Positions 21,788-31,686 of a stretch of DNA of 64,000 nucleotides are shown piece by piece. Both the position numbers and the translations under genes were made by a program. The stretch covers positions 320,001-384,000 of the forward strand of contig JAHPZE010000001.1 of assembly GCA_019058365.1 (NCBI GenBank). Direction: 5' to 3'. Position 1 is the first letter of the stretch. Every line of letters starts with the position of its first letter. The DNA is from Promethearchaeota archaeon. GTDB taxonomy: Archaea > Asgardarchaeota > Lokiarchaeia > Sigyniarchaeales > SOKP01. The notes below the pieces were generated by a model. It saw only the letters and a program-made list of their open reading frames with translations, ran no database searches and had not been told where the DNA came from.

Positions 21788-24326
21788 ATTTAACCTCCTC
21801 CAATAATTTATTATAAAATTTATTAGCAACCTCAGCAAACTTGTTCCCTTCAACAGCATTCAAATGTTTAAGAATTATTCGCTCACGGTATTTTGTCGGG
21901 ATAATATTTTTTAATATCAATATTTTTTTTTCTACTTTCTCTACTCCATCAATATATCGACACGCATTTTTTCTACAACCAATTATCATCACTCCATCAA
22001 AACCTAACTCAAACGATTTAATTATGAAATTCGTATCTATGCGACCAGTGCAAGGAACACTTAAAATAAAGATATTTGGATTATATGAGATCTTCTTAAG
22101 ACCCGCATCATCTGCAGCAGCATAACCACAAGAACGACAACAAAAGGCAATAATTTTAGGTTGTTTTCTAAATTTCGAAAAAATTTCAATTGATTTTAAA
22201 ATCTTCTCAGAATTATCTATGTTTAAATCTATCGCATTAGTGGGACAAATACTAGCGCATGTACCACATCCCTTACATTTAAATTTATCTATATTTACTT
22301 TTTCTGATTCTATTGTAATTGCATTGTAAGGACAAATTTTAGAACACAATCCACATAAGCCACACTTGTTATCATCGATTTCGATTCCACTAAACTCCGC
22401 TATCAAATAATCATTAGAGAGTAATGAAATGATTTTAATCGCTGTATTATTAGCTGTTGAAATCGTAGAATTATAATCTAATGGACCAAATATAGTTCCA
22501 ACCCCATATATTCCAGATGCTAATGTCTCTTCACTCATAAAACCATAATCATCTAATGTAAAATCCATTGTTTTTCGAAATGCTTTTAAGTCTTTATTTG
22601 GTACTAAAGTTTGATTTAACACTATTAAGTCACTTGGATATTCTTTTGAATCGACTTTTACTATCTTTTGATCGTTTTTTTCAACAATTTTTACTTTATT
22701 AGAATAATGTATCCTAGAATCCATGGATCTTAGTGTAAAGTCGTCTGCTTTTTTTATCTTACTTAAATCGTAAAAAATATTGACTTTACAATCAGGATTT
22801 TTTACTTCAACATAATTTAAATATTTTAAAGCAAGGATATCTTGAAGTTTATGTTGATGATCAGGGTGTCCAGCATATTGAATAATCGAAATCGTCTTTG
22901 GAGGCGTTTTATCAGAAATTTTTACTATTTTACCTTCTGTGAAGCCATCAGAAGATAACATTCTTTCAAACTCCGATGATGTAATGATATCATTTTGTGG
23001 GTTATAACAATATTCATCTAAATCTGTAAAAAGATCAGAACCGATAGCTATAACTTTAGTACCTACCTTAATTTCAATTTTTTCTGGTTTTTGTGTCAAA
23101 TCTATTGCTTTATTAACGCATGCACGTTCACAAATTCTGCAATTAAGACAATTCTTAATATCTGATTCATCAATTAAAGGAACATAGGGAAAAGAATGAA
23201 TAAATGGGATATAAATAATTTTTCTATTATTTAATCCAAATTCATATTGATTTTGTTTTTCAATACTGCATACTTTTATGCATTGTTTACAACCAGTACA
23301 TTTCTTTGTATCTACATATCGCGGTTTTTTAATCAAATTAAGAGTAAAATTTCCGACTTCTCCTGAAACACTTTCTATTTCAGTATTAGTAAGTACTTTT
23401 ACATTTTTTTCATTCACCAACTCACCTATTAATTCTGAAATGAAGCATATAGAACAATCGCCCATATTATGTATTCGATCCCATCGGGCTACTTTACCTC
23501 CCAAAGTTGGTGATTTCTCAATAACATATACTTTTATTCCAGCTCGAGCTAAGTTTAATGCAAGTGTTATACCCGCTATTCCACCTCCTAAAATTGCAGC
23601 ACTTTTTTCAATTTCAACTCTCTTAATTTTTACTTTTTTTTGAAGACTAACGCGTTCAACTGCTGCTTCAATTAATAATTTTGCCTTTTCTAATGAAAGA
23701 GAGGGATCGATTTGATTAATTTCGAATTGATGTACCCAACAACATTGTTCTCTAATATTTGCTATTTCTATATTCACATGTTCAATGACACCATCAAAAA
23801 TTCGCTTAAAAAGATGCTGATGAGTTTTTGGAGAGCAAGCAGCTATTACAATCTTGTTTAAAAAGTTATCTTTTACCCAATGTGTAATTTTATCAAAATT
23901 TTTTTGCTGGCATAAATTTTCGAAGATTTTTACAGATACAACCTTTCTTAACTTATTTACATATTTTTCAAGAGCAGTTATATTAATTACATTTGAAATT
24001 TCTGTATTGCAATTGCAAATTATTACTCCAATTCGGCTTATTTCACTTCCCTGAGAATCTAAGTATTCATCAATATTTTCTCCTGATAAAATTCTTTTGT
24101 TGAGATTTAGTATTTTTAATATACGTTTACCATCTTCCGTAAGAAAATATGATTTTTTATCTTTATTGATTAATGTACCAATTTTTTTGAGATGGAAATT
24201 TAACTGTCCTGTAGTATCTAAACCCAATTTTTCCATTAAATCTGTATAGGGAATATAACCCTCTTTTTCTAAAAGGAGTAAGATCTTTCTTCTAAACGGA
24301 TGAGATAATATAGAATATATATCCAT
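21777..24326 (-). CDS. Fusion protein: ArsR-like winged helix + degenerate HdrA + MvhD
   Basis: SHPFRRKILLLL..GQLNFHLKKI..YFLTEDG (wHTH); CNC, ACSP, NIREQC, GGGIAG, DCSIC and ferredoxin motifs (HdrA); FCCRSCGYAAAD, PCTGRID and GC...C (MvhD). Confidence 0.85.
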   Translation of the reverse strand: MDIYSILSHPFRRKILLLLEKEGYIPYTDLMEKLGLDTTGQLNFHLKKIGTLINKDKKSYFLTEDGKRILKILNLNKRILSGENIDEYLDSQGSEISRIGVIICNCNTEISNVINITALEKYVNKLRKVVSVKIFENLCQQKNFDKITHWVKDNFLNKIVIAACSPKTHQHLFKRIFDGVIEHVNIEIANIREQCCWVHQFEINQIDPSLSLEKAKLLIEAAVERVSLQKKVKIKRVEIEKSAAILGGGIAGITLALNLARAGIKVYVIEKSPTLGGKVARWDRIHNMGDCSICFISELIGELVNEKNVKVLTNTEIESVSGEVGNFTLNLIKKPRYVDTKKCTGCKQCIKVCSIEKQNQYEFGLNNRKIIYIPFIHSFPYVPLIDESDIKNCLNCRICERACVNKAIDLTQKPEKIEIKVGTKVIAIGSDLFTDLDEYCYNPQNDIITSSEFERMLSSDGFTEGKIVKISDKTPPKTISIIQYAGHPDHQHKLQDILALKYLNYVEVKNPDCKVNIFYDLSKIKKADDFTLRSMDSRIHYSNKVKIVEKNDQKIVKVDSKEYPSDLIVLNQTLVPNKDLKAFRKTMDFTLDDYGFMSEETLASGIYGVGTIFGPLDYNSTISTANNTAIKIISLLSNDYLIAEFSGIEIDDNKCGLCGLCSKICPYNAITIESEKVNIDKFKCKGCGTCASICPTNAIDLNIDNSEKILKSIEIFSKFRKQPKIIAFCCRSCGYAAADDAGLKKISYNPNIFILSVPCTGRIDTNFIIKSFELGFDGVMIIGCRKNACRYIDGVEKVEKKILILKNIIPTKYRERIILKHLNAVEGNKFAEVANKFYNKLLEEVKFET

Positions 24327-24791
24327 AATTCATTTTCCTTTTTCAAATAAATTATATTATATATTTTTAATAGAAAAAATAATTTTAAATTCAAAAATAA
24401 CTATGACTATTTTGATAAACAAAATGATCTCTATGATAAATATCATTGTCAGAGTATATAAATATGATCCTTTTCCCATTTATAGTATTTGAAAGTAGTC
24501 AAATAAGTGTTAGAAAGATCATAGTTTTTATCATAAAAGCGATAGATCCTCTATAAGAAAATAATTATACGAAGATCAGATTCGTATATTAAGTCAAAAA
24601 AAGACTAAAAATTTTGTCAAATAATTAAAATTTCTCTTATCAGATTTTTTAAATTTACTTAAAATCATCATTTAATCTGAATAGCAGAAAAAAAAATGCA
24701 TTTTATTCTTTTGCAGATTTTTAGTTTTTTCAATTTCATGAATTTATTACATTATAATTAATAGTAGGTGATGTTTTACTAGGTGAATTAA

Positions 24792-26828
24792 ATGTCTGAG
24801 ATACAGACCATGGTGAGAATTGGAGTATATATCTGTAGATGAGGAGTTAATATCAGTACTTCTATCGACTGTGATCTTATTAGAGATTATGTTGAGGCCC
24901 TCCCAAACGTTATTGTTGCTAAAGTAAATGATTTTACTTGTAGCGATCCAGGACAAAAAATTATCAAAAACGATATTTTAGATTTAGACTTAAATCGAGT
25001 GGTTGTTGCAGCTTGTACACCTAAAATTCACGAATCCACCTATCGATTAGTTTTAGTTGAAGCAGGATTAAACCCATATTACTTCCAAATGGTTAATCTT
25101 CGTGAGCATTGTTCATTTACTCACTCGGGAAATAAGAGAAAAACTACTGAAAAAGCTATAAGGTTAGTGCAAGCAGGGATAAATCGTGCTAGAGAATTAG
25201 AGATAGTACCTTATAAAAAATTATCAGTAGAGAAATCGGTATTAATTATCGGTGCGGGTATTGCGGGAATGAATGCAGCATTAGATTTAGCAAATCAAGG
25301 AATAAATGTATATTTAGTCGAAAAAGAAGCTACAATTGGAGGTAAAATGGTACAATTAGATCGAATTTATCCCACAGACGATTGTGCTATATGAGTTCTA
25401 GCACCTATTATGGTTAGTACTTCAAAACATCCAAATATAACCTTATTTACTTGTAGTGAAATCATAAAATTTAGTGGCAACACTGGAAACTATAATGTTA
25501 TAATACACAAAAAAGCCCGGTATGTTAATGAAAGTAAATGCACGGGTTGTGGATTATGTACTACAAAATGTCCAATAAAGGTACCTAACGAATTTGATAG
25601 AGGTATGGGTGAACGAAGCGCAATTTACATACCTTTTCCCCAAGCAGTACCTAAGGTTGCTTTAATTGATAAGAGTGTTTGTATAGATTGCAAAAGTTGT
25701 GAAAAAATTTGTCCCGCAGAAGCTATTGACTTAGATCAAACCTCAGAATATATAGATTTAAAAGTTGGTGCAGTCATTATTGCAACGGGATGGGATGAAT
25801 ATCCAATTATGAAAAATAACGAATATAAATATGGTATTTATCTTGATGTTATTACTCAAATAGAATTGGAACGAATGTTAAGTCCAGTTGGACCAACTGG
25901 GGGTCATGTATGTAGAATTTCTGATGGAAAAATCCCAAAAACAGTCGCGATGATTCAATGCGTGGGTTCAAGATCCTTAAACGGGAATCCCTATTGCTCA
26001 GGAGTATGTTGTAATGTTGCACTTAAAAACGCTCAATTGTTAAAACATGAATATCCTGATATGGAAATTGTTATTTTTTATATAGATATGCGGACATGGG
26101 ATAAAGGAAATGAGGAATATTATAGAAAAGCGAGAGAAGCGGGGATAATGATGATTCGAGGAAAAGTAGGAGATGTAAGACAAGATCCCAACTTAAAAAA
26201 AATAAAAGTTACAGCTTCTTCAACTTTAACAAATGATTTTATTACAATGGATACCGATTTAGTTGTATTATCTACGGGAATGGTCCCCTCTAAAAAAACA
26301 ACACAAATCGTTGAGACTTTAGGAATTGCTAAAGATATAAATGGGTTTTTAACTGAAGTTCATGGATGCCTGAAACCTCAAGAGACAAATAATTTGGGTA
26401 TATATATATGTGGCTGTGCTGCTGGACCTAAAAATATCCCTTATTCCGTGTCAACTGCATTAGCTGCTGCAAGTAAAGCATCTACTTTACTCTGTAAAGA
26501 TACAATAACTCAAGAATTAATCATCGCTGAAGTAAATGAAAATTTATGTATGGGTTGCCATAGATGTGAAAAACTTTGTAATTATAATGCAATAAAAGTT
26601 AATAGAGAGAATATAGCTATAGTAGATGATTTAAAATGTAAAGGGTGCGGAGTTTGTGTATCATCATGCCCCGCTAGAGCAATTGATCTTAAATACTATA
26701 GAGATAAGCAAATTAGTGAAGAGATAAGAGGGATCTGTAGTACTGAACTTGAATATAAGGAAGAATATATTGAATCTATTGATCTTATTTGGAAAAAGAT
26801 TGAAGCATTAGCTCCTTATCAAACATAA
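24792..26828 (+). CDS. hdrA: Heterodisulfide reductase subunit A, selenoprotein with two in-frame UGA (codons 17 and 201; 678 aa)
   Basis: Single frame from ATG 24792 (SD AGGTGA at 24781) through TGA 24840-42 (GVYICR*GVNI) and TGA 25392-94 (DDCAI*VLAP) to TAA 26828; the in-window paralog has Cys at both sites (CRCGINI, DCSLCILAP). Confidence 0.9.
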
Positions 26829-26829
26829 T

Positions 26830-26898
26830 CTGAAAAAGAATGATCCTCTTAAACAAATGTTAGTTGAGAGGAAACTAACCCATTGCATGGGTTTTCAG
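26830..26898 (+). promoter_or_regulatory. SECIS-like 3'-UTR stem-loop
   Basis: AUGA (26840-43) followed by a 9-bp helix UCCUCUUAA/UUGAGAGGA, A-rich apical region with possible mini-stem, outer helix CUGAAAA/UUUUCAG; immediately after the Sec-HdrA stop. Confidence 0.6.
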
Positions 26899-26935
26899 AA
26901 AAATATAAAATAATAATTGATATAATTTTATATCA

Positions 26936-28066
26936 TTAATTCATATTAGTTTGATTTCTGATCTTTAAAGAAATTAATTTATTATACCAATCTAATTTCT
27001 TATTCTTCCACTCAATAGTTCTGTTAGATGGAACAATAAACTGCTCAATTATCCCTTTTGAAAGCATACTATTTATTACATTCTTACCATTATCAGTTCT
27101 AATTAATATCATAGAATATCCTTCTGGAGCTCCAGATGCCCCAACACTAATATCTGTAAATCTTCCCGTGAATTCATCACATTCATGGCAATTATTTCTT
27201 ACTGCGGGATTTAGAGTTTTCATATCGATTTCGAATTCTTTATTATCTTTTGTTTGGATAAAGAAATTCTTTTTTATCCAAGTCTTCTTAATATTAGTAG
27301 GAACTACTTCTATTTCTCTTTTTAAGATATCATATAATTTGTCATAAATAAAATTCTCAAAACAGAAAAGACCTATAATATATTTAATGACATGAGCAGG
27401 TTTAACATGTAAAAATTTCATTTTATTAACAGCCCTACATTGACAAGGAGTTCCAATAAATGCTATTCTTAGCTCGTCAATATCAAATATCTCCTTCTTT
27501 ATAAGAATTTCTTTCGGTATAGTGTATAAATTTTTTAAAGGGAATATTTGAGGAGAAATAGAATAACGTGTACCTGCTGATTTAAATAAATCCTCTTTAT
27601 CAAATATAATTTTTGGAACGGGTTTAAAATTGCGGTCAAATTCCGAAACAATAGCGGCATCAATTTTATGTTTTTCAAATAAATATGTTAGAATTGCTGA
27701 AACTACTCCTCCATCTTGTCCAACTTTTTCTAATACAGTATTTATTGCTTTAGCAGCAAGAATTTTAACAATTTTTCCAATATTATCTTCAATACAATAA
27801 ATCTCATTTAATTCTTTTAATAATACTTTAGTTTGAGGACAAATATAATAACAAACACCACATTTAGTACAGTTTTCAACACTTCTTTCTGATTTAAATT
27901 CGGGATTATATCCCTTCATTTCAATAACATCAAAACCTTGACTTTCGCAATATGCTATGCAAGCACCACATGCACAGCATTTATTACCATTAATTATTTC
28001 ATTTTTAAGATCTTCAAATGTTTTTACTTCATTTTGTAAAAGTTTCTCATAAGTTAATTCGGTCAT
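26936..28066 (-). CDS. Coenzyme F420 hydrogenase/dehydrogenase beta subunit (FrhB/FdhB family) with N-terminal ferredoxin
   Basis: CCACGAC, CTKCGVC..ICP, QDGGVVS, AGTRY, GTPCQ, GLFC.ENF and DISVG. Confidence 0.88.
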   Translation of the reverse strand: MTELTYEKLLQNEVKTFEDLKNEIINGNKCCACGACIAYCESQGFDVIEMKGYNPEFKSERSVENCTKCGVCYYICPQTKVLLKELNEIYCIEDNIGKIVKILAAKAINTVLEKVGQDGGVVSAILTYLFEKHKIDAAIVSEFDRNFKPVPKIIFDKEDLFKSAGTRYSISPQIFPLKNLYTIPKEILIKKEIFDIDELRIAFIGTPCQCRAVNKMKFLHVKPAHVIKYIIGLFCFENFIYDKLYDILKREIEVVPTNIKKTWIKKNFFIQTKDNKEFEIDMKTLNPAVRNNCHECDEFTGRFTDISVGASGAPEGYSMILIRTDNGKNVINSMLSKGIIEQFIVPSNRTIEWKNKKLDWYNKLISLKIRNQTNMN

Positions 28067-28572: not shown

Positions 28573-31500
28573 TTAAACAATTTCATAATCAATTATGTCT
28601 AAACTTGGTAATAAATCAATCATTTTGCTAATTTGAAATTTACTAAAATGATTTTGATCAATAGCCCCAACTGAACATTCCACAACACAAGCTCCGCACC
28701 CCTTACAAACAGCACTAATTATATGAGCCTTTTTCATAGATATATTATACAAACCCATCTCTTTACAGATTTCAACCAATTCAATTGCATTATAGGGGCA
28801 AATCTCAGTACATTTACCGCATCCTATACATTTTTCTTCATTTACATAAGAAGTAATACATTCAGTTTCTATTTCTCCTTTAACCATTATTATTGCTGCT
28901 CTTCCAGCAGCAGCATAAGCTTGAATAATACTTTCACCAATCCATTTCGGCCAATGAGCGCCTCCACAAAGGAAAATTCCTTCTGTTGCAAAATCAATTG
29001 GTCTAAGTTTTGCATCAGCTTCTAAGAAAAAGCCATCTGTATTTGTTGATACTTTTAACATTTTTGCTAATTGTTTTGTATCATCAGTAGGAACTTTTGG
29101 AGTGGCTAATATTAATAAATCAGTATCATATTTTATATTTGTTTGAGCGCCAATATTATTATATAAGATATGGAACTTATCATTTACATCACTGATTTTG
29201 ATATCATCAATTGAACGATATCTTTCATAAGTTACTTTCTTTCGAAGACCTCGCCATAAATTTTCAGCATTTAAATCGGAGAATTGAAATTCTCTATATA
29301 AAATATGAATTTGTGCTTTAGGGTTGATATTCAATAATTTTTCAATATTCTTTAATGCTACACCACAACAGATATTTGAGCAATAAGGTTTTATATTATC
29401 TCCCCTATTAAATTCGTTTCTTCTTTGATCTACGCACAAAATTATTGTAGCATCTTTAAATACGGGGACATCTTCATCACTCAATGCAGTTAATTCAGTT
29501 TGAGTAAGCAGACGATTAGGATATTTTTCCGATAAATCTGCCCATCTATTTGTTTTTATTTGTTTAGTTCCCGTAGAAACTATTATTGTACCTACATTGA
29601 ATTTTGTATATTTTGAACTATCATTAACATTTTTAACTTTTACTTGATAATTTCCAACATAACCTTGGATATCCTCTATTTCTGAATTTAATAAAATATG
29701 AATATCAGATTTGTTTTTCAAATCAGCAATTTTCTGTAAAATTTCATTTTTCGTAATAGGTATATAATATAAATCAATAAATTCAAGAGCGATACCTCCA
29801 AGAAAAGATTTCTTCTCTACAAGATATATCTCGAATCCTTGATTTGCCAAATTATGTGCAGTAGTTATTCCTGCTATTCCACCGCCAATAATTAAAGATG
29901 ATTTTTCAACTTTTTCTTTAATGGTTTCTAATGGTTTTAAATTAATAACCTTCGCTAAGTGCATTCTTATTAAATCACATGCTTTTTTAGTAGCCTCTTT
30001 AGGTTCATTTTGATGGACCCATGAATCTTGGTTTCTTATGTTTACTAGTTCAAATAAAAATGGATTTAATCCTACTTCTCTTAGAGTATTTTTAAAAAGT
30101 TGTTCATGAGTTCGCGGGGTACAAGAAGCAACTATAAATCTATTAAGATTGTATTTTACAATTAGTTCTTTAATCCGTTCTTGTGAATCAGAACTACAAG
30201 AATACATGTTTTCTTCAACATGAACAACATATGGTAATTTAGAAACATAGTTTACTACTTCAGGAACGTTAACAATACCCCCGATATTAATACCACACCG
30301 ACAAACTAAAATACCTACACGAGGTTTATCCTCTGGTTTTACTGGTATTTCTGGAGGATATTTCACTTTTATAATATTTTGAAATCTAACAGGATACAAT
30401 TTCTCACTAATTTTAGCTGCACATGCAGAACCTTCAGCAACAGCCATTTGAATGTCATTGGGTTTTCTAGAATAGCCAGTTACGAATATATTCTTTTTTT
30501 CAAGTAAAATTATATCAGTCTCACTAATATAACCTAAATCATCACAATCCAAACTGAGTTTTTTTAATAGCTTATAATAAGAAGGAGGTGGAGATAGTGC
30601 ACTAGCCAATATAACCATATCCACTTCAAAAGTTCCAACTTTTCCTTTATCAATATCTTCAAAATATAACTTTAATTTTCCGTTATCTAAATTTTCTTTA
30701 ACATATGAAACATGCCCGTTCACATATTTGACATTATATTCATTCTTACTTTTTTCAATAAATTCGTAAAAGTTCTTACCTTTTGCTCTGATTTCTGTGT
30801 TAAAAATATAGCAGTCGATATTTGGATCATGTTCTTTGACAACTATTGCTTCTTTAGCCGAATTCATGCAACATATGGCAGAACAATATTTTTTACATTC
30901 TGGATGATGAACGTTTCTGGAGCCTACACATTGTATAAAAGCAATTGAATGAGGATGTTTTTTATCATCTAATCTTATAATTTTACCACCTGTAGGCCCA
31001 TTTGCTGATAAAAGACGCTCAAATTGCATATTGGATAAAACATTAGGGGAAGAACCCGCAAAAGAATTATAAATTTCTGGCATTTCTTGATTATATCCTG
31101 TAGCAATAACAATAGCCCCTACTTTTAAATGTATTTCTTCTGGTTTTTGTAAAAAATCTATCGCTTCTGCACTACAAGCTTTAGCACAAAGTCCACATAT
31201 TCTATAATTTAAATATAAACATTTTGATTCATCAATGAGATATATTGGGGGTACTGAAGATGGAAAAGGAATATATATCGCACTTCGAGTTTTTAAATGA
31301 GTATCAAATTCGCTAGGAATTCCTCTAACGGGACAAATTTCGCCACAATCTCCACATCCTTTACAGAGGTCTTCTTTTAAATATCTTGGCTTCTTAATAA
31401 TTGTTATTGTGTAATCACCAGCAGTTCCTCTAATGTTTTTAATGTAAGAATAAGTAAATAACTCAATATTTGGATTTCTATATATATCAACCATTTTCGG

Positions 31501-31686
31501 AGCTAAGATGCATAAGCTACAATCAAGAGTAGGATATATTTTATCTAATTGGGCCATAGTACCTCCTATTGTTGGTTTAATTTCAACTAAATATACTTTA
31601 AAACCTAATTTGGTTAGATCTAAGGATGCTTGTATCCCTGAGATTCCTCCTCCAATAACCAAAACACTACTCCATAAATTTGGCAT
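28573..31686 (-). CDS. hdrA: Large HdrA-like flavoprotein with two FAD modules
   Basis: GGGISG..DCSLC, QCVGSR..CSAICC, internal CRCGINI/CSSD/CTPRTH domain, second GGGIAG module, C-terminal ferredoxin. Confidence 0.88.
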   Translation of the reverse strand: MPNLWSSVLVIGGGISGIQASLDLTKLGFKVYLVEIKPTIGGTMAQLDKIYPTLDCSLCILAPKMVDIYRNPNIELFTYSYIKNIRGTAGDYTITIIKKPRYLKEDLCKGCGDCGEICPVRGIPSEFDTHLKTRSAIYIPFPSSVPPIYLIDESKCLYLNYRICGLCAKACSAEAIDFLQKPEEIHLKVGAIVIATGYNQEMPEIYNSFAGSSPNVLSNMQFERLLSANGPTGGKIIRLDDKKHPHSIAFIQCVGSRNVHHPECKKYCSAICCMNSAKEAIVVKEHDPNIDCYIFNTEIRAKGKNFYEFIEKSKNEYNVKYVNGHVSYVKENLDNGKLKLYFEDIDKGKVGTFEVDMVILASALSPPPSYYKLLKKLSLDCDDLGYISETDIILLEKKNIFVTGYSRKPNDIQMAVAEGSACAAKISEKLYPVRFQNIIKVKYPPEIPVKPEDKPRVGILVCRCGINIGGIVNVPEVVNYVSKLPYVVHVEENMYSCSSDSQERIKELIVKYNLNRFIVASCTPRTHEQLFKNTLREVGLNPFLFELVNIRNQDSWVHQNEPKEATKKACDLIRMHLAKVINLKPLETIKEKVEKSSLIIGGGIAGITTAHNLANQGFEIYLVEKKSFLGGIALEFIDLYYIPITKNEILQKIADLKNKSDIHILLNSEIEDIQGYVGNYQVKVKNVNDSSKYTKFNVGTIIVSTGTKQIKTNRWADLSEKYPNRLLTQTELTALSDEDVPVFKDATIILCVDQRRNEFNRGDNIKPYCSNICCGVALKNIEKLLNINPKAQIHILYREFQFSDLNAENLWRGLRKKVTYERYRSIDDIKISDVNDKFHILYNNIGAQTNIKYDTDLLILATPKVPTDDTKQLAKMLKVSTNTDGFFLEADAKLRPIDFATEGIFLCGGAHWPKWIGESIIQAYAAAGRAAIIMVKGEIETECITSYVNEEKCIGCGKCTEICPYNAIELVEICKEMGLYNISMKKAHIISAVCKGCGACVVECSVGAIDQNHFSKFQISKMIDLLPSLDIIDYEIV

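Follow-up and report, generated by a model that had tools for sequence, protein, structure and literature searches.

The closest described relatives of the gene considered here are the HdrA proteins of Lokiarchaeota, for which Mariotti et al. (2016; PMC4989117) reported up to four selenocysteine (Sec) residues at five positions, and the wider set of multi-Sec HdrA proteins surveyed across Asgard archaea in 2024 (PMC11227280). In both sources hdrA and vhuD/frhD are described as always standing in tandem with one shared SECIS element 3′ of vhuD, an arrangement given for “almost all” cases in the later survey. The element, termed lokiSECIS, is defined (PMC4989117) by an AUGA directly before a 9-bp stem with an 11-nt apical loop, the first five bases of the loop being A-rich and its last G usually following an A, with GA or AA past the stem. 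In the crystal structure of HdrA the N-terminal [4Fe-4S] cluster is bound by cysteines of the N-domain together with Cys197 of the partner protomer, and fused or tandem HdrAs show a complementary loss of N-domain and Cys197 (Chadwick et al. 2022; PMC9012536).

The DNA analysed here, called the window, is a stretch of 64,000 nucleotides (contig C16, positions 320001-384000) from a 4.74 Mb genome in 54 contigs with 29.5% G+C that belongs to an Asgard archaeon of the Lokiarchaeia type. When TGA is translated as Sec (U), positions 24792-26828 of its plus strand form a single HdrA frame of 678 codons closed by TAA, with no internal stops other than the TGAs at 24840-24842 (codon 17) and 25392-25394 (codon 201). 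A Shine-Dalgarno-like AGGTGA, read from the sequence at 24781-24786, lies 5 nt ahead of the ATG at 24792. The first UGA stands in the context C-R-U-G-V-N-I, at the second Cys of the N-domain motif C-x-C-G-x-N-I, and the second in D-C-A-I-U, the canonical HdrA Sec site D-C-x-x-U that corresponds to Cys/Sec197 of methanococcal HdrA. Under genetic code table 11 the gene appears in the open reading frame list as the pieces 24999-25394 and 25410-26828. The initial annotation, which had described one frame interrupted by two TGAs alone, cut into these same pieces by the ORF caller, and with both TGAs opposite cysteines of a paralog at 28573-31686 (minus strand), is confirmed on each of these counts. 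In a BLASTP alignment with this 1037-residue paralog, U201 is opposite the final Cys of the D-C-S-L-C in module 1, and U17 opposite the second of the two cysteines in the C-R-C-G of module 2. The paralog itself is a fused double HdrA in which module 1 has the D-C-x-x-C site and is devoid of an N-domain, and module 2 keeps the N-domain C-x-C-G motif and is missing the C-x-x-C site, which is the complementary-loss pattern that Chadwick et al. (PMC9012536) give for fused HdrA. C-x-C-G is likewise what the Cys-type HdrA paralogs of this genome read. This case confirms that genuine genes with several Sec codons are cut apart by standard gene callers in Asgard genomes, and HdrA copy numbers and reconstructions of redox metabolism in Asgard archaea are therefore easily wrong.

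The product is an intact 678-residue HdrA-family flavoprotein with iron-sulfur clusters. It aligns over residues 9-650 with two solved HdrA chains (PDB 9sfi_A, E = 5e-212; 5odc_A, E = 9e-205), and in 9sfi_A a deposited selenocysteine, written X, stands opposite residue 201 and a Cys opposite residue 17. The translation contains the FAD-binding, thioredoxin-reductase-like fold with its G-x-G-x-x-G (Pfam Pyr_redox_2, FAD_oxidored and related families at residues 149-189), two pairs of 4Fe-4S ferredoxin motifs, one inserted and one C-terminal (Fer4-type Pfam matches at 243-312 and 579-632), and the C-V-G-S-R ... Y-C-S-x-x-C-C motif of cluster HA4. In the N-domain, the seat of cluster HA3, four Cys positions are conserved (15, 17, which is Sec here, 50 and 75), and an alignment of 27 diverse HdrA N-domains from Asgard archaea and bacteria shows conserved Cys at these four only. 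Residues 15, 17, 50, 75 and 201 correspond to Cys11, Cys13, Cys46, Cys71 and Cys197 in the numbering of the solved HdrA structures. The scores remain below the NCBIfam equivalog cut-offs for methanogen HdrA and HdrA2 (810.7 bits against 1100 for HdrA2; 622 against 1300 and 595 against 1400), so the protein is to be read as a member of the family and not as a demonstrated subunit of a CoB-CoM heterodisulfide reductase. Lokiarchaeia are not methanogens.

A search of 40 related genomes returned a full-length ortholog (79-95% identity) in 14 other species of the genus, each with at least two TGAs, and the TGAs at codons 17 and 201 are present in 14/14. Both are invariant in all 12 gap-free orthologs (eleven gap-free comparisons with the window gene), and both are kept in each gap-free ortholog examined from more than 20 Promethearchaeota (Lokiarchaeia) genomes; close relatives occur in metagenome-assembled genomes (MAGs) titled Promethearchaeota or Promethearchaeia, Loki_b32 among them. 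In the eleven comparisons, synonymous and non-synonymous codon changes number 36 and 19 in codons 1-16, 524 and 212 in codons 18-200, and 1126 and 814 in codons 202-678. Substitutions fall mainly on third positions in all three segments, and the codons before, between and after the TGAs evolve as coding sequence. One might suppose that two nonsense mutations have turned hdrA into a pseudogene, as would suit a frame broken twice under table 11. We consider this extremely improbable, given that the TGAs are identical in 14 other species, that constraint on the protein persists past each of them, that both fall on conserved Cys positions and that a conserved SECIS follows the gene. The initial annotation had already judged two chance nonsense mutations unlikely and had proposed a search for conserved TGAs in Asgard relatives; that search now bears it out, with orthologs carrying TGA and not TGY codons at these sites.

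The two reported pieces, 24999-25394 and 25410-26828, could instead be separate polypeptides that form a split HdrA, and each does have a possible start codon (GTG and ATG). The breaks, however, lie within the N-terminal domain and within the FAD-binding fold, and both codons 1-16 and the stretches just ahead of the two internal “starts” are conserved as protein. Moreover, an AF2 model of residues 1-135 reaches a pLDDT of 89 and superposes on the N-domain of 5odc_A with a TM-score of 0.90, residues 9-69 included, which makes two separate chains a scarcely credible arrangement.

In a wider set of 79 related loci from public genomes, TGA occurs at position 17 in 64, at 50 in 32, at 75 in 43 and at 201 in 71, and at position 15 in none, so that within the N-domain recurrent Sec would fall on 17, 50 and 75. 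Rare TGAs at 260, 297, 303, 406/407 and 619 are all at Cys positions. These extra TGAs, found at codons 260 and 297 in the ortholog of genome G002 (loci L062/L097), 406/407 in L083, L098 and L099, 619 in L132 and 303 in L136, coincide with cysteines of the ferredoxin motif C-x-x-C-x-x-C-x-x-x-C-P or with ligand positions of Y-C-S-x-x-C-C (HA4), and would put Sec where Fe-S ligation is beyond doubt. In L063/L101 position 112, a Ser position, reads TGA. The ortholog in MAG DZ1B.205 (L086) reads GGA (Gly) at codon 17 and keeps Sec201; accordingly Sec17 may not be strictly essential, or the MAG carries an error. Within the genome studied here, five full-length HdrA paralogs contain in-frame TGAs, all five at both sites, and one of them adds a third at position 77.

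Directly behind the gene we found an RNA element that has all the published sequence and structure features of lokiSECIS. Its core (26840-26874, plus strand) starts 11 nt past the TAA of hdrA and consists of AUGA, a 9-bp helix (26844-26852 paired with 26864-26872), an 11-nt A-rich loop (26853-26863) that begins A-C-A-A-A and ends A-G, and then AA. In 11 of 14 orthologs the loop opens with five A, and GA follows the stem in four. The offset of +11 from the stop is the same in all orthologs that keep the TAA; in two (L062 of G002 and L065 of G012) TAA has changed to TTA, so that the stop is lost and the frame continues as far as the UGA within AUGA, as is likewise described for VhuU.1, which ends at its SECIS UGA (Mariotti et al., PMC4989117).

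The core is enclosed by a lower helix (26829-26835 with 26893-26899), on whose 3′ side sits a small second hairpin (26878-26892) followed by a run of U. Folding of 26826-26935 with RNAfold gives -25.4 kcal/mol (z = -4.5), and lower helix and hairpin are both supported by fold and covariation. Across 15 aligned 3′ ends of orthologs, the proportion of paired cells is 94%, compared to about 60% when partners are shifted by one column, and six pairs, spread over the lower helix (3 of its 7 pairs), the SECIS helix and the extra hairpin, are changed on both sides. A strict lokiSECIS pattern run over both strands of the genome gives 9 matches compared to 1-5 in first-order Markov random genomes, and 4 of the 9 lie directly behind Sec-hdrA or Sec-hdrA-vhuD genes. 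Rfam, searched at permissive E-values over 24300-27200, matched no SECIS family.

The lower helix, AUGA core, 9-bp helix and second 3′ hairpin are common to most lokiSECIS elements of this genome; the composite shape is seen, for example, in six 3′ UTRs (C9:91170, C16:433517 on the minus strand, C9:30893, C34:290724, C34:292516 and C35:297183), so that lower helix and hairpin are not special to the window hdrA. The extra 3′ hairpin is not described in the published accounts of lokiSECIS that we found. LokiSECIS elements also stand 12-15 nt downstream of two paralogous 158-residue genes (C34:290239-290715 and 292028-292504, or L161:440-916 and 2229-2705) that contain adjacent in-frame TGA-TGA codons (U-U), and neither gene has a match in a Pfam search.

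The surroundings of the gene differ from the tandem arrangement described for Asgard archaea. The window hdrA is monocistronic, with no adjoining hdrBC. The gene that follows, FrhB-like and convergent (26936-28066), is the last of an operon of Cys-type hdrD, double hdrA, mvhD and frhB, and of the 22 orthologous loci at least 16 keep this neighbour. No vhuD lies downstream, and the vhuD-less arrangement is conserved in the orthologs, so the gene owns its SECIS. Behind each of the other four Sec-hdrA genes of the genome, a few bases away, stands a vhuD that contains two in-frame TGAs, and then a lokiSECIS, which fits the strict pattern in three cases and a version with two mismatches in the fourth. 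The window HdrA ends in 14-25 extra residues that align to the C-terminus of VhuD (hhalign P = 1e-4; 14 of 5000 shuffles), and part of this tail also resembles the C-terminus of a paralogous HdrA. The tail may tentatively be thought of as a remnant of a deleted vhuD, a history that we do not claim given the second similarity. If the element works where it now stands, a SECIS can stay functional without its usual host gene vhuD, a point of relevance to the spread of SECIS elements among genes.

Decoding of UGA as Sec also needs a dedicated machinery, which the initial annotation had suggested looking for in the genome. SepSecS (C34:23408-24565; 480 bits, cut-off 225) and two SelD genes on C30, each with one in-frame TGA, score above their cut-offs. 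An EFsec-like GTPase (C34:17205-18623, minus strand) has selB as its best family at 241 bits, just below the cut-off of 242.25 and about 110 bits above the EF-Tu models, and for a PSTK-like kinase (C37:58890-59639, minus strand) PSTK is likewise the best family, at 150 bits, below the NCBIfam cut-off of 290.5.

The tRNA-Sec (anticodon UCA; C34:23029-23185, plus strand) came to light when GC-rich islands were scanned for a hairpin with a UCA anticodon, and lies between the EFsec-like gene, about 4.4 kb away, and SepSecS. Its acceptor stem has 9 bp and its T stem 4 bp, the discriminator base is G and CCA is encoded. Two inserts with approximate borders interrupt it, of about 36 nt (D loop) and 30 nt (T loop), and after removal of both in silico the gene is recognised by ARAGORN as a 91-nt tRNA-SeC(tca). 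On the whole genome as it stands ARAGORN calls no tRNA-SeC and the Rfam tRNA-Sec model gives only sub-threshold matches, all of them to ordinary tRNAs; both tools missed the gene because of the two inserts. A strict structural regular expression for tRNA-Sec returned only AT-rich junk, and a weak tmRNA-like match near SepSecS, considered as a candidate, turned out to be another intron-rich tRNA. By comparison, the Lokiarchaeum tRNA-Sec reported by Mariotti et al. (PMC4989117) has a single 31-nt T-loop intron and lies about 6 kb from EFsec. The two inserts explain how such genomes can come out of automated pipelines as negative for the Sec trait. In the same region, a tRNA-like gene with long inserts (C34:25519-25694, or L052:17520-17695 on the minus strand), a GGGCC...GGCCCA acceptor and UAU in the anticodon loop is not called by ARAGORN. 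The total of called tRNAs, only about 30 for a genome of 4.7 Mb, suggests that many intron-rich ones are missed.

These components bear on whether the UGAs are read as something other than Sec, be it through near-cognate or suppressor decoding to Cys or Trp or through a genome-wide reassignment of TGA. The sequence itself does not identify the inserted residue, and Cys would be chemically acceptable at both sites. Nonetheless, TGA closes 278 of the 1879 open frames of at least 300 codons in this genome and is thus a normal stop codon that has not been reassigned; the gene has a dedicated SECIS and the genome a full Sec pathway, including a tRNA with a UCA anticodon; and the solved methanococcal HdrA bears Sec at the site equivalent to 201. 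We therefore hold a non-Sec reading to be very unlikely. Selenocysteine, as first proposed for both TGAs, is upheld by their conservation, by their Cys positions and by the 3′-UTR SECIS and the Sec machinery, and on this sequence evidence we put the probability at roughly 0.93 that both UGAs are decoded as selenocysteine by way of the single eukaryote-like lokiSECIS 3′ of an intact hdrA. We infer that selenium is in fact incorporated. In the mechanism that we propose, Sec would be inserted at the two in-frame UGAs to give residues 17 and 201, with the lokiSECIS at 26840-26874 acting over about 2.0 kb for the first UGA and about 1.45 kb for the second, and Sec-tRNA(Sec) would be brought by the archaeal EFsec, to which the SECIS is presumably linked. 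SBP2 is not known from Asgard archaea.

What the two selenium atoms might do can be considered from the structures. In cryo-EM work of 2026 (PMC13518236 and a second paper), the C-x-x-C/U pair lies between the bifurcating FAD and a mobile arm, which is composed of the [2Fe-2S] cluster of MvhD/VhuD and the HA3 “shuttle” cluster. At the C-x-x-U site, for which PMC13518236 describes Sec197, one of the papers reports density that would fit a selenylsulfide between Cys and Sec197 and the other an unknown ligand, and both call the role of C-x-x-C/U mechanistically unresolved. Sec201 would occupy this site between FAD and arm, and Sec17 a conserved Cys position of the mobile N-domain that carries the [4Fe-4S] shuttle cluster HA3. 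From these locations both selenium atoms probably act at the same electron-transfer junction (HA3/FAD). The recurrent Sec sites of the family fit such a picture, as 17, 50 and 75 are three of the four conserved N-domain cysteines and 201 is the equivalent of Cys197; all four are predicted to be residues linked to the mobile shuttle cluster, and thus to gather around the junction flagged in the two cryo-EM papers.

A further and doubtful step would be to take 17, 50, 75 and 201 as the ligand set of HA3, which in this protein would be held or gated by the selenolates of Sec17 and of Sec201 from the partner protomer, their easier exchange speeding docking and undocking. If true, this docking step would be the gate of flavin-based electron bifurcation, and the protein would contain a naturally occurring Fe-S cluster whose Se ligation serves the mechanism.

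Set against known systems, the gene sits closest to HdrA.1-4 of Lokiarchaeota, of the same phylum and family, in which, according to PMC4989117 and PMC11227280, Sec is always found near position 200 with more at conserved cysteines. One lokiSECIS is described there (PMC4989117) as serving UGAs up to about 2 kb away behind a TAA or TAG stop, as in the window gene. HdrA.1-4 have a tandem vhuD and a SECIS 3′ of it, whereas here vhuD is absent and the SECIS lies directly 3′ of hdrA. Our family map (17, 50, 75 and 201 plus rare sites, including the last ferredoxin motif) fits the account in PMC4989117, the five published positions being compared by description only. The HdrA(U) of Methanococcales and Methanopyrus (PDB 9sfi; Sec197, PMC13518236), the full-length match at E = 5e-212, has its Sec at the identical C-x-x-U site. 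It holds that one Sec, with Cys at the position of residue 17, whereas the window protein would hold two; its SECIS is of the GC-rich archaeal type and it works with HdrBC in methanogenesis, partners that are not encoded next to the window gene.

Another comparison is with VhuD/MvhD, the two-Sec proteins of the FlpD family, which share a related alpha/beta fold with the HdrA N-domain. In a Foldseek search the N-domain weakly resembles chain D of 5ODC/5ODH (137-138 residues; TM-score 0.45-0.51), whose length fits MvhD, and in a weak profile alignment Sec17 falls on the first Sec of VhuD and Cys75 on the second. The alignment is only marginal (hhalign E = 0.027), so the mirroring of Sec sites is a lead only; Pfam finds no FlpD match in the N-domain, and VhuD binds a [2Fe-2S] cluster whereas the HdrA N-domain binds a [4Fe-4S] one.

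The initial annotation knew Sec-containing HdrA from methanococci and Lokiarchaeota, and rightly so, as seen from Sec197 in the solved methanococcal chain (PMC13518236) and from the lokiarchaeal proteins of PMC4989117. Its view of the N-terminal Sec as less familiar does not stand, as the gene belongs to the multi-Sec HdrA class described in the 2016 and 2024 papers (PMC4989117; PMC11227280). Genes of this type have been in print since 2016, which makes the finding genuine without being new; also published is a eukaryote-like SECIS that serves several UGAs from about 2 kb away. To this known system the present locus makes modest additions, namely an ortholog group without vhuD and with a private SECIS, a tRNA-Sec with two inserts, and a predicted structural reading of the Sec sites.
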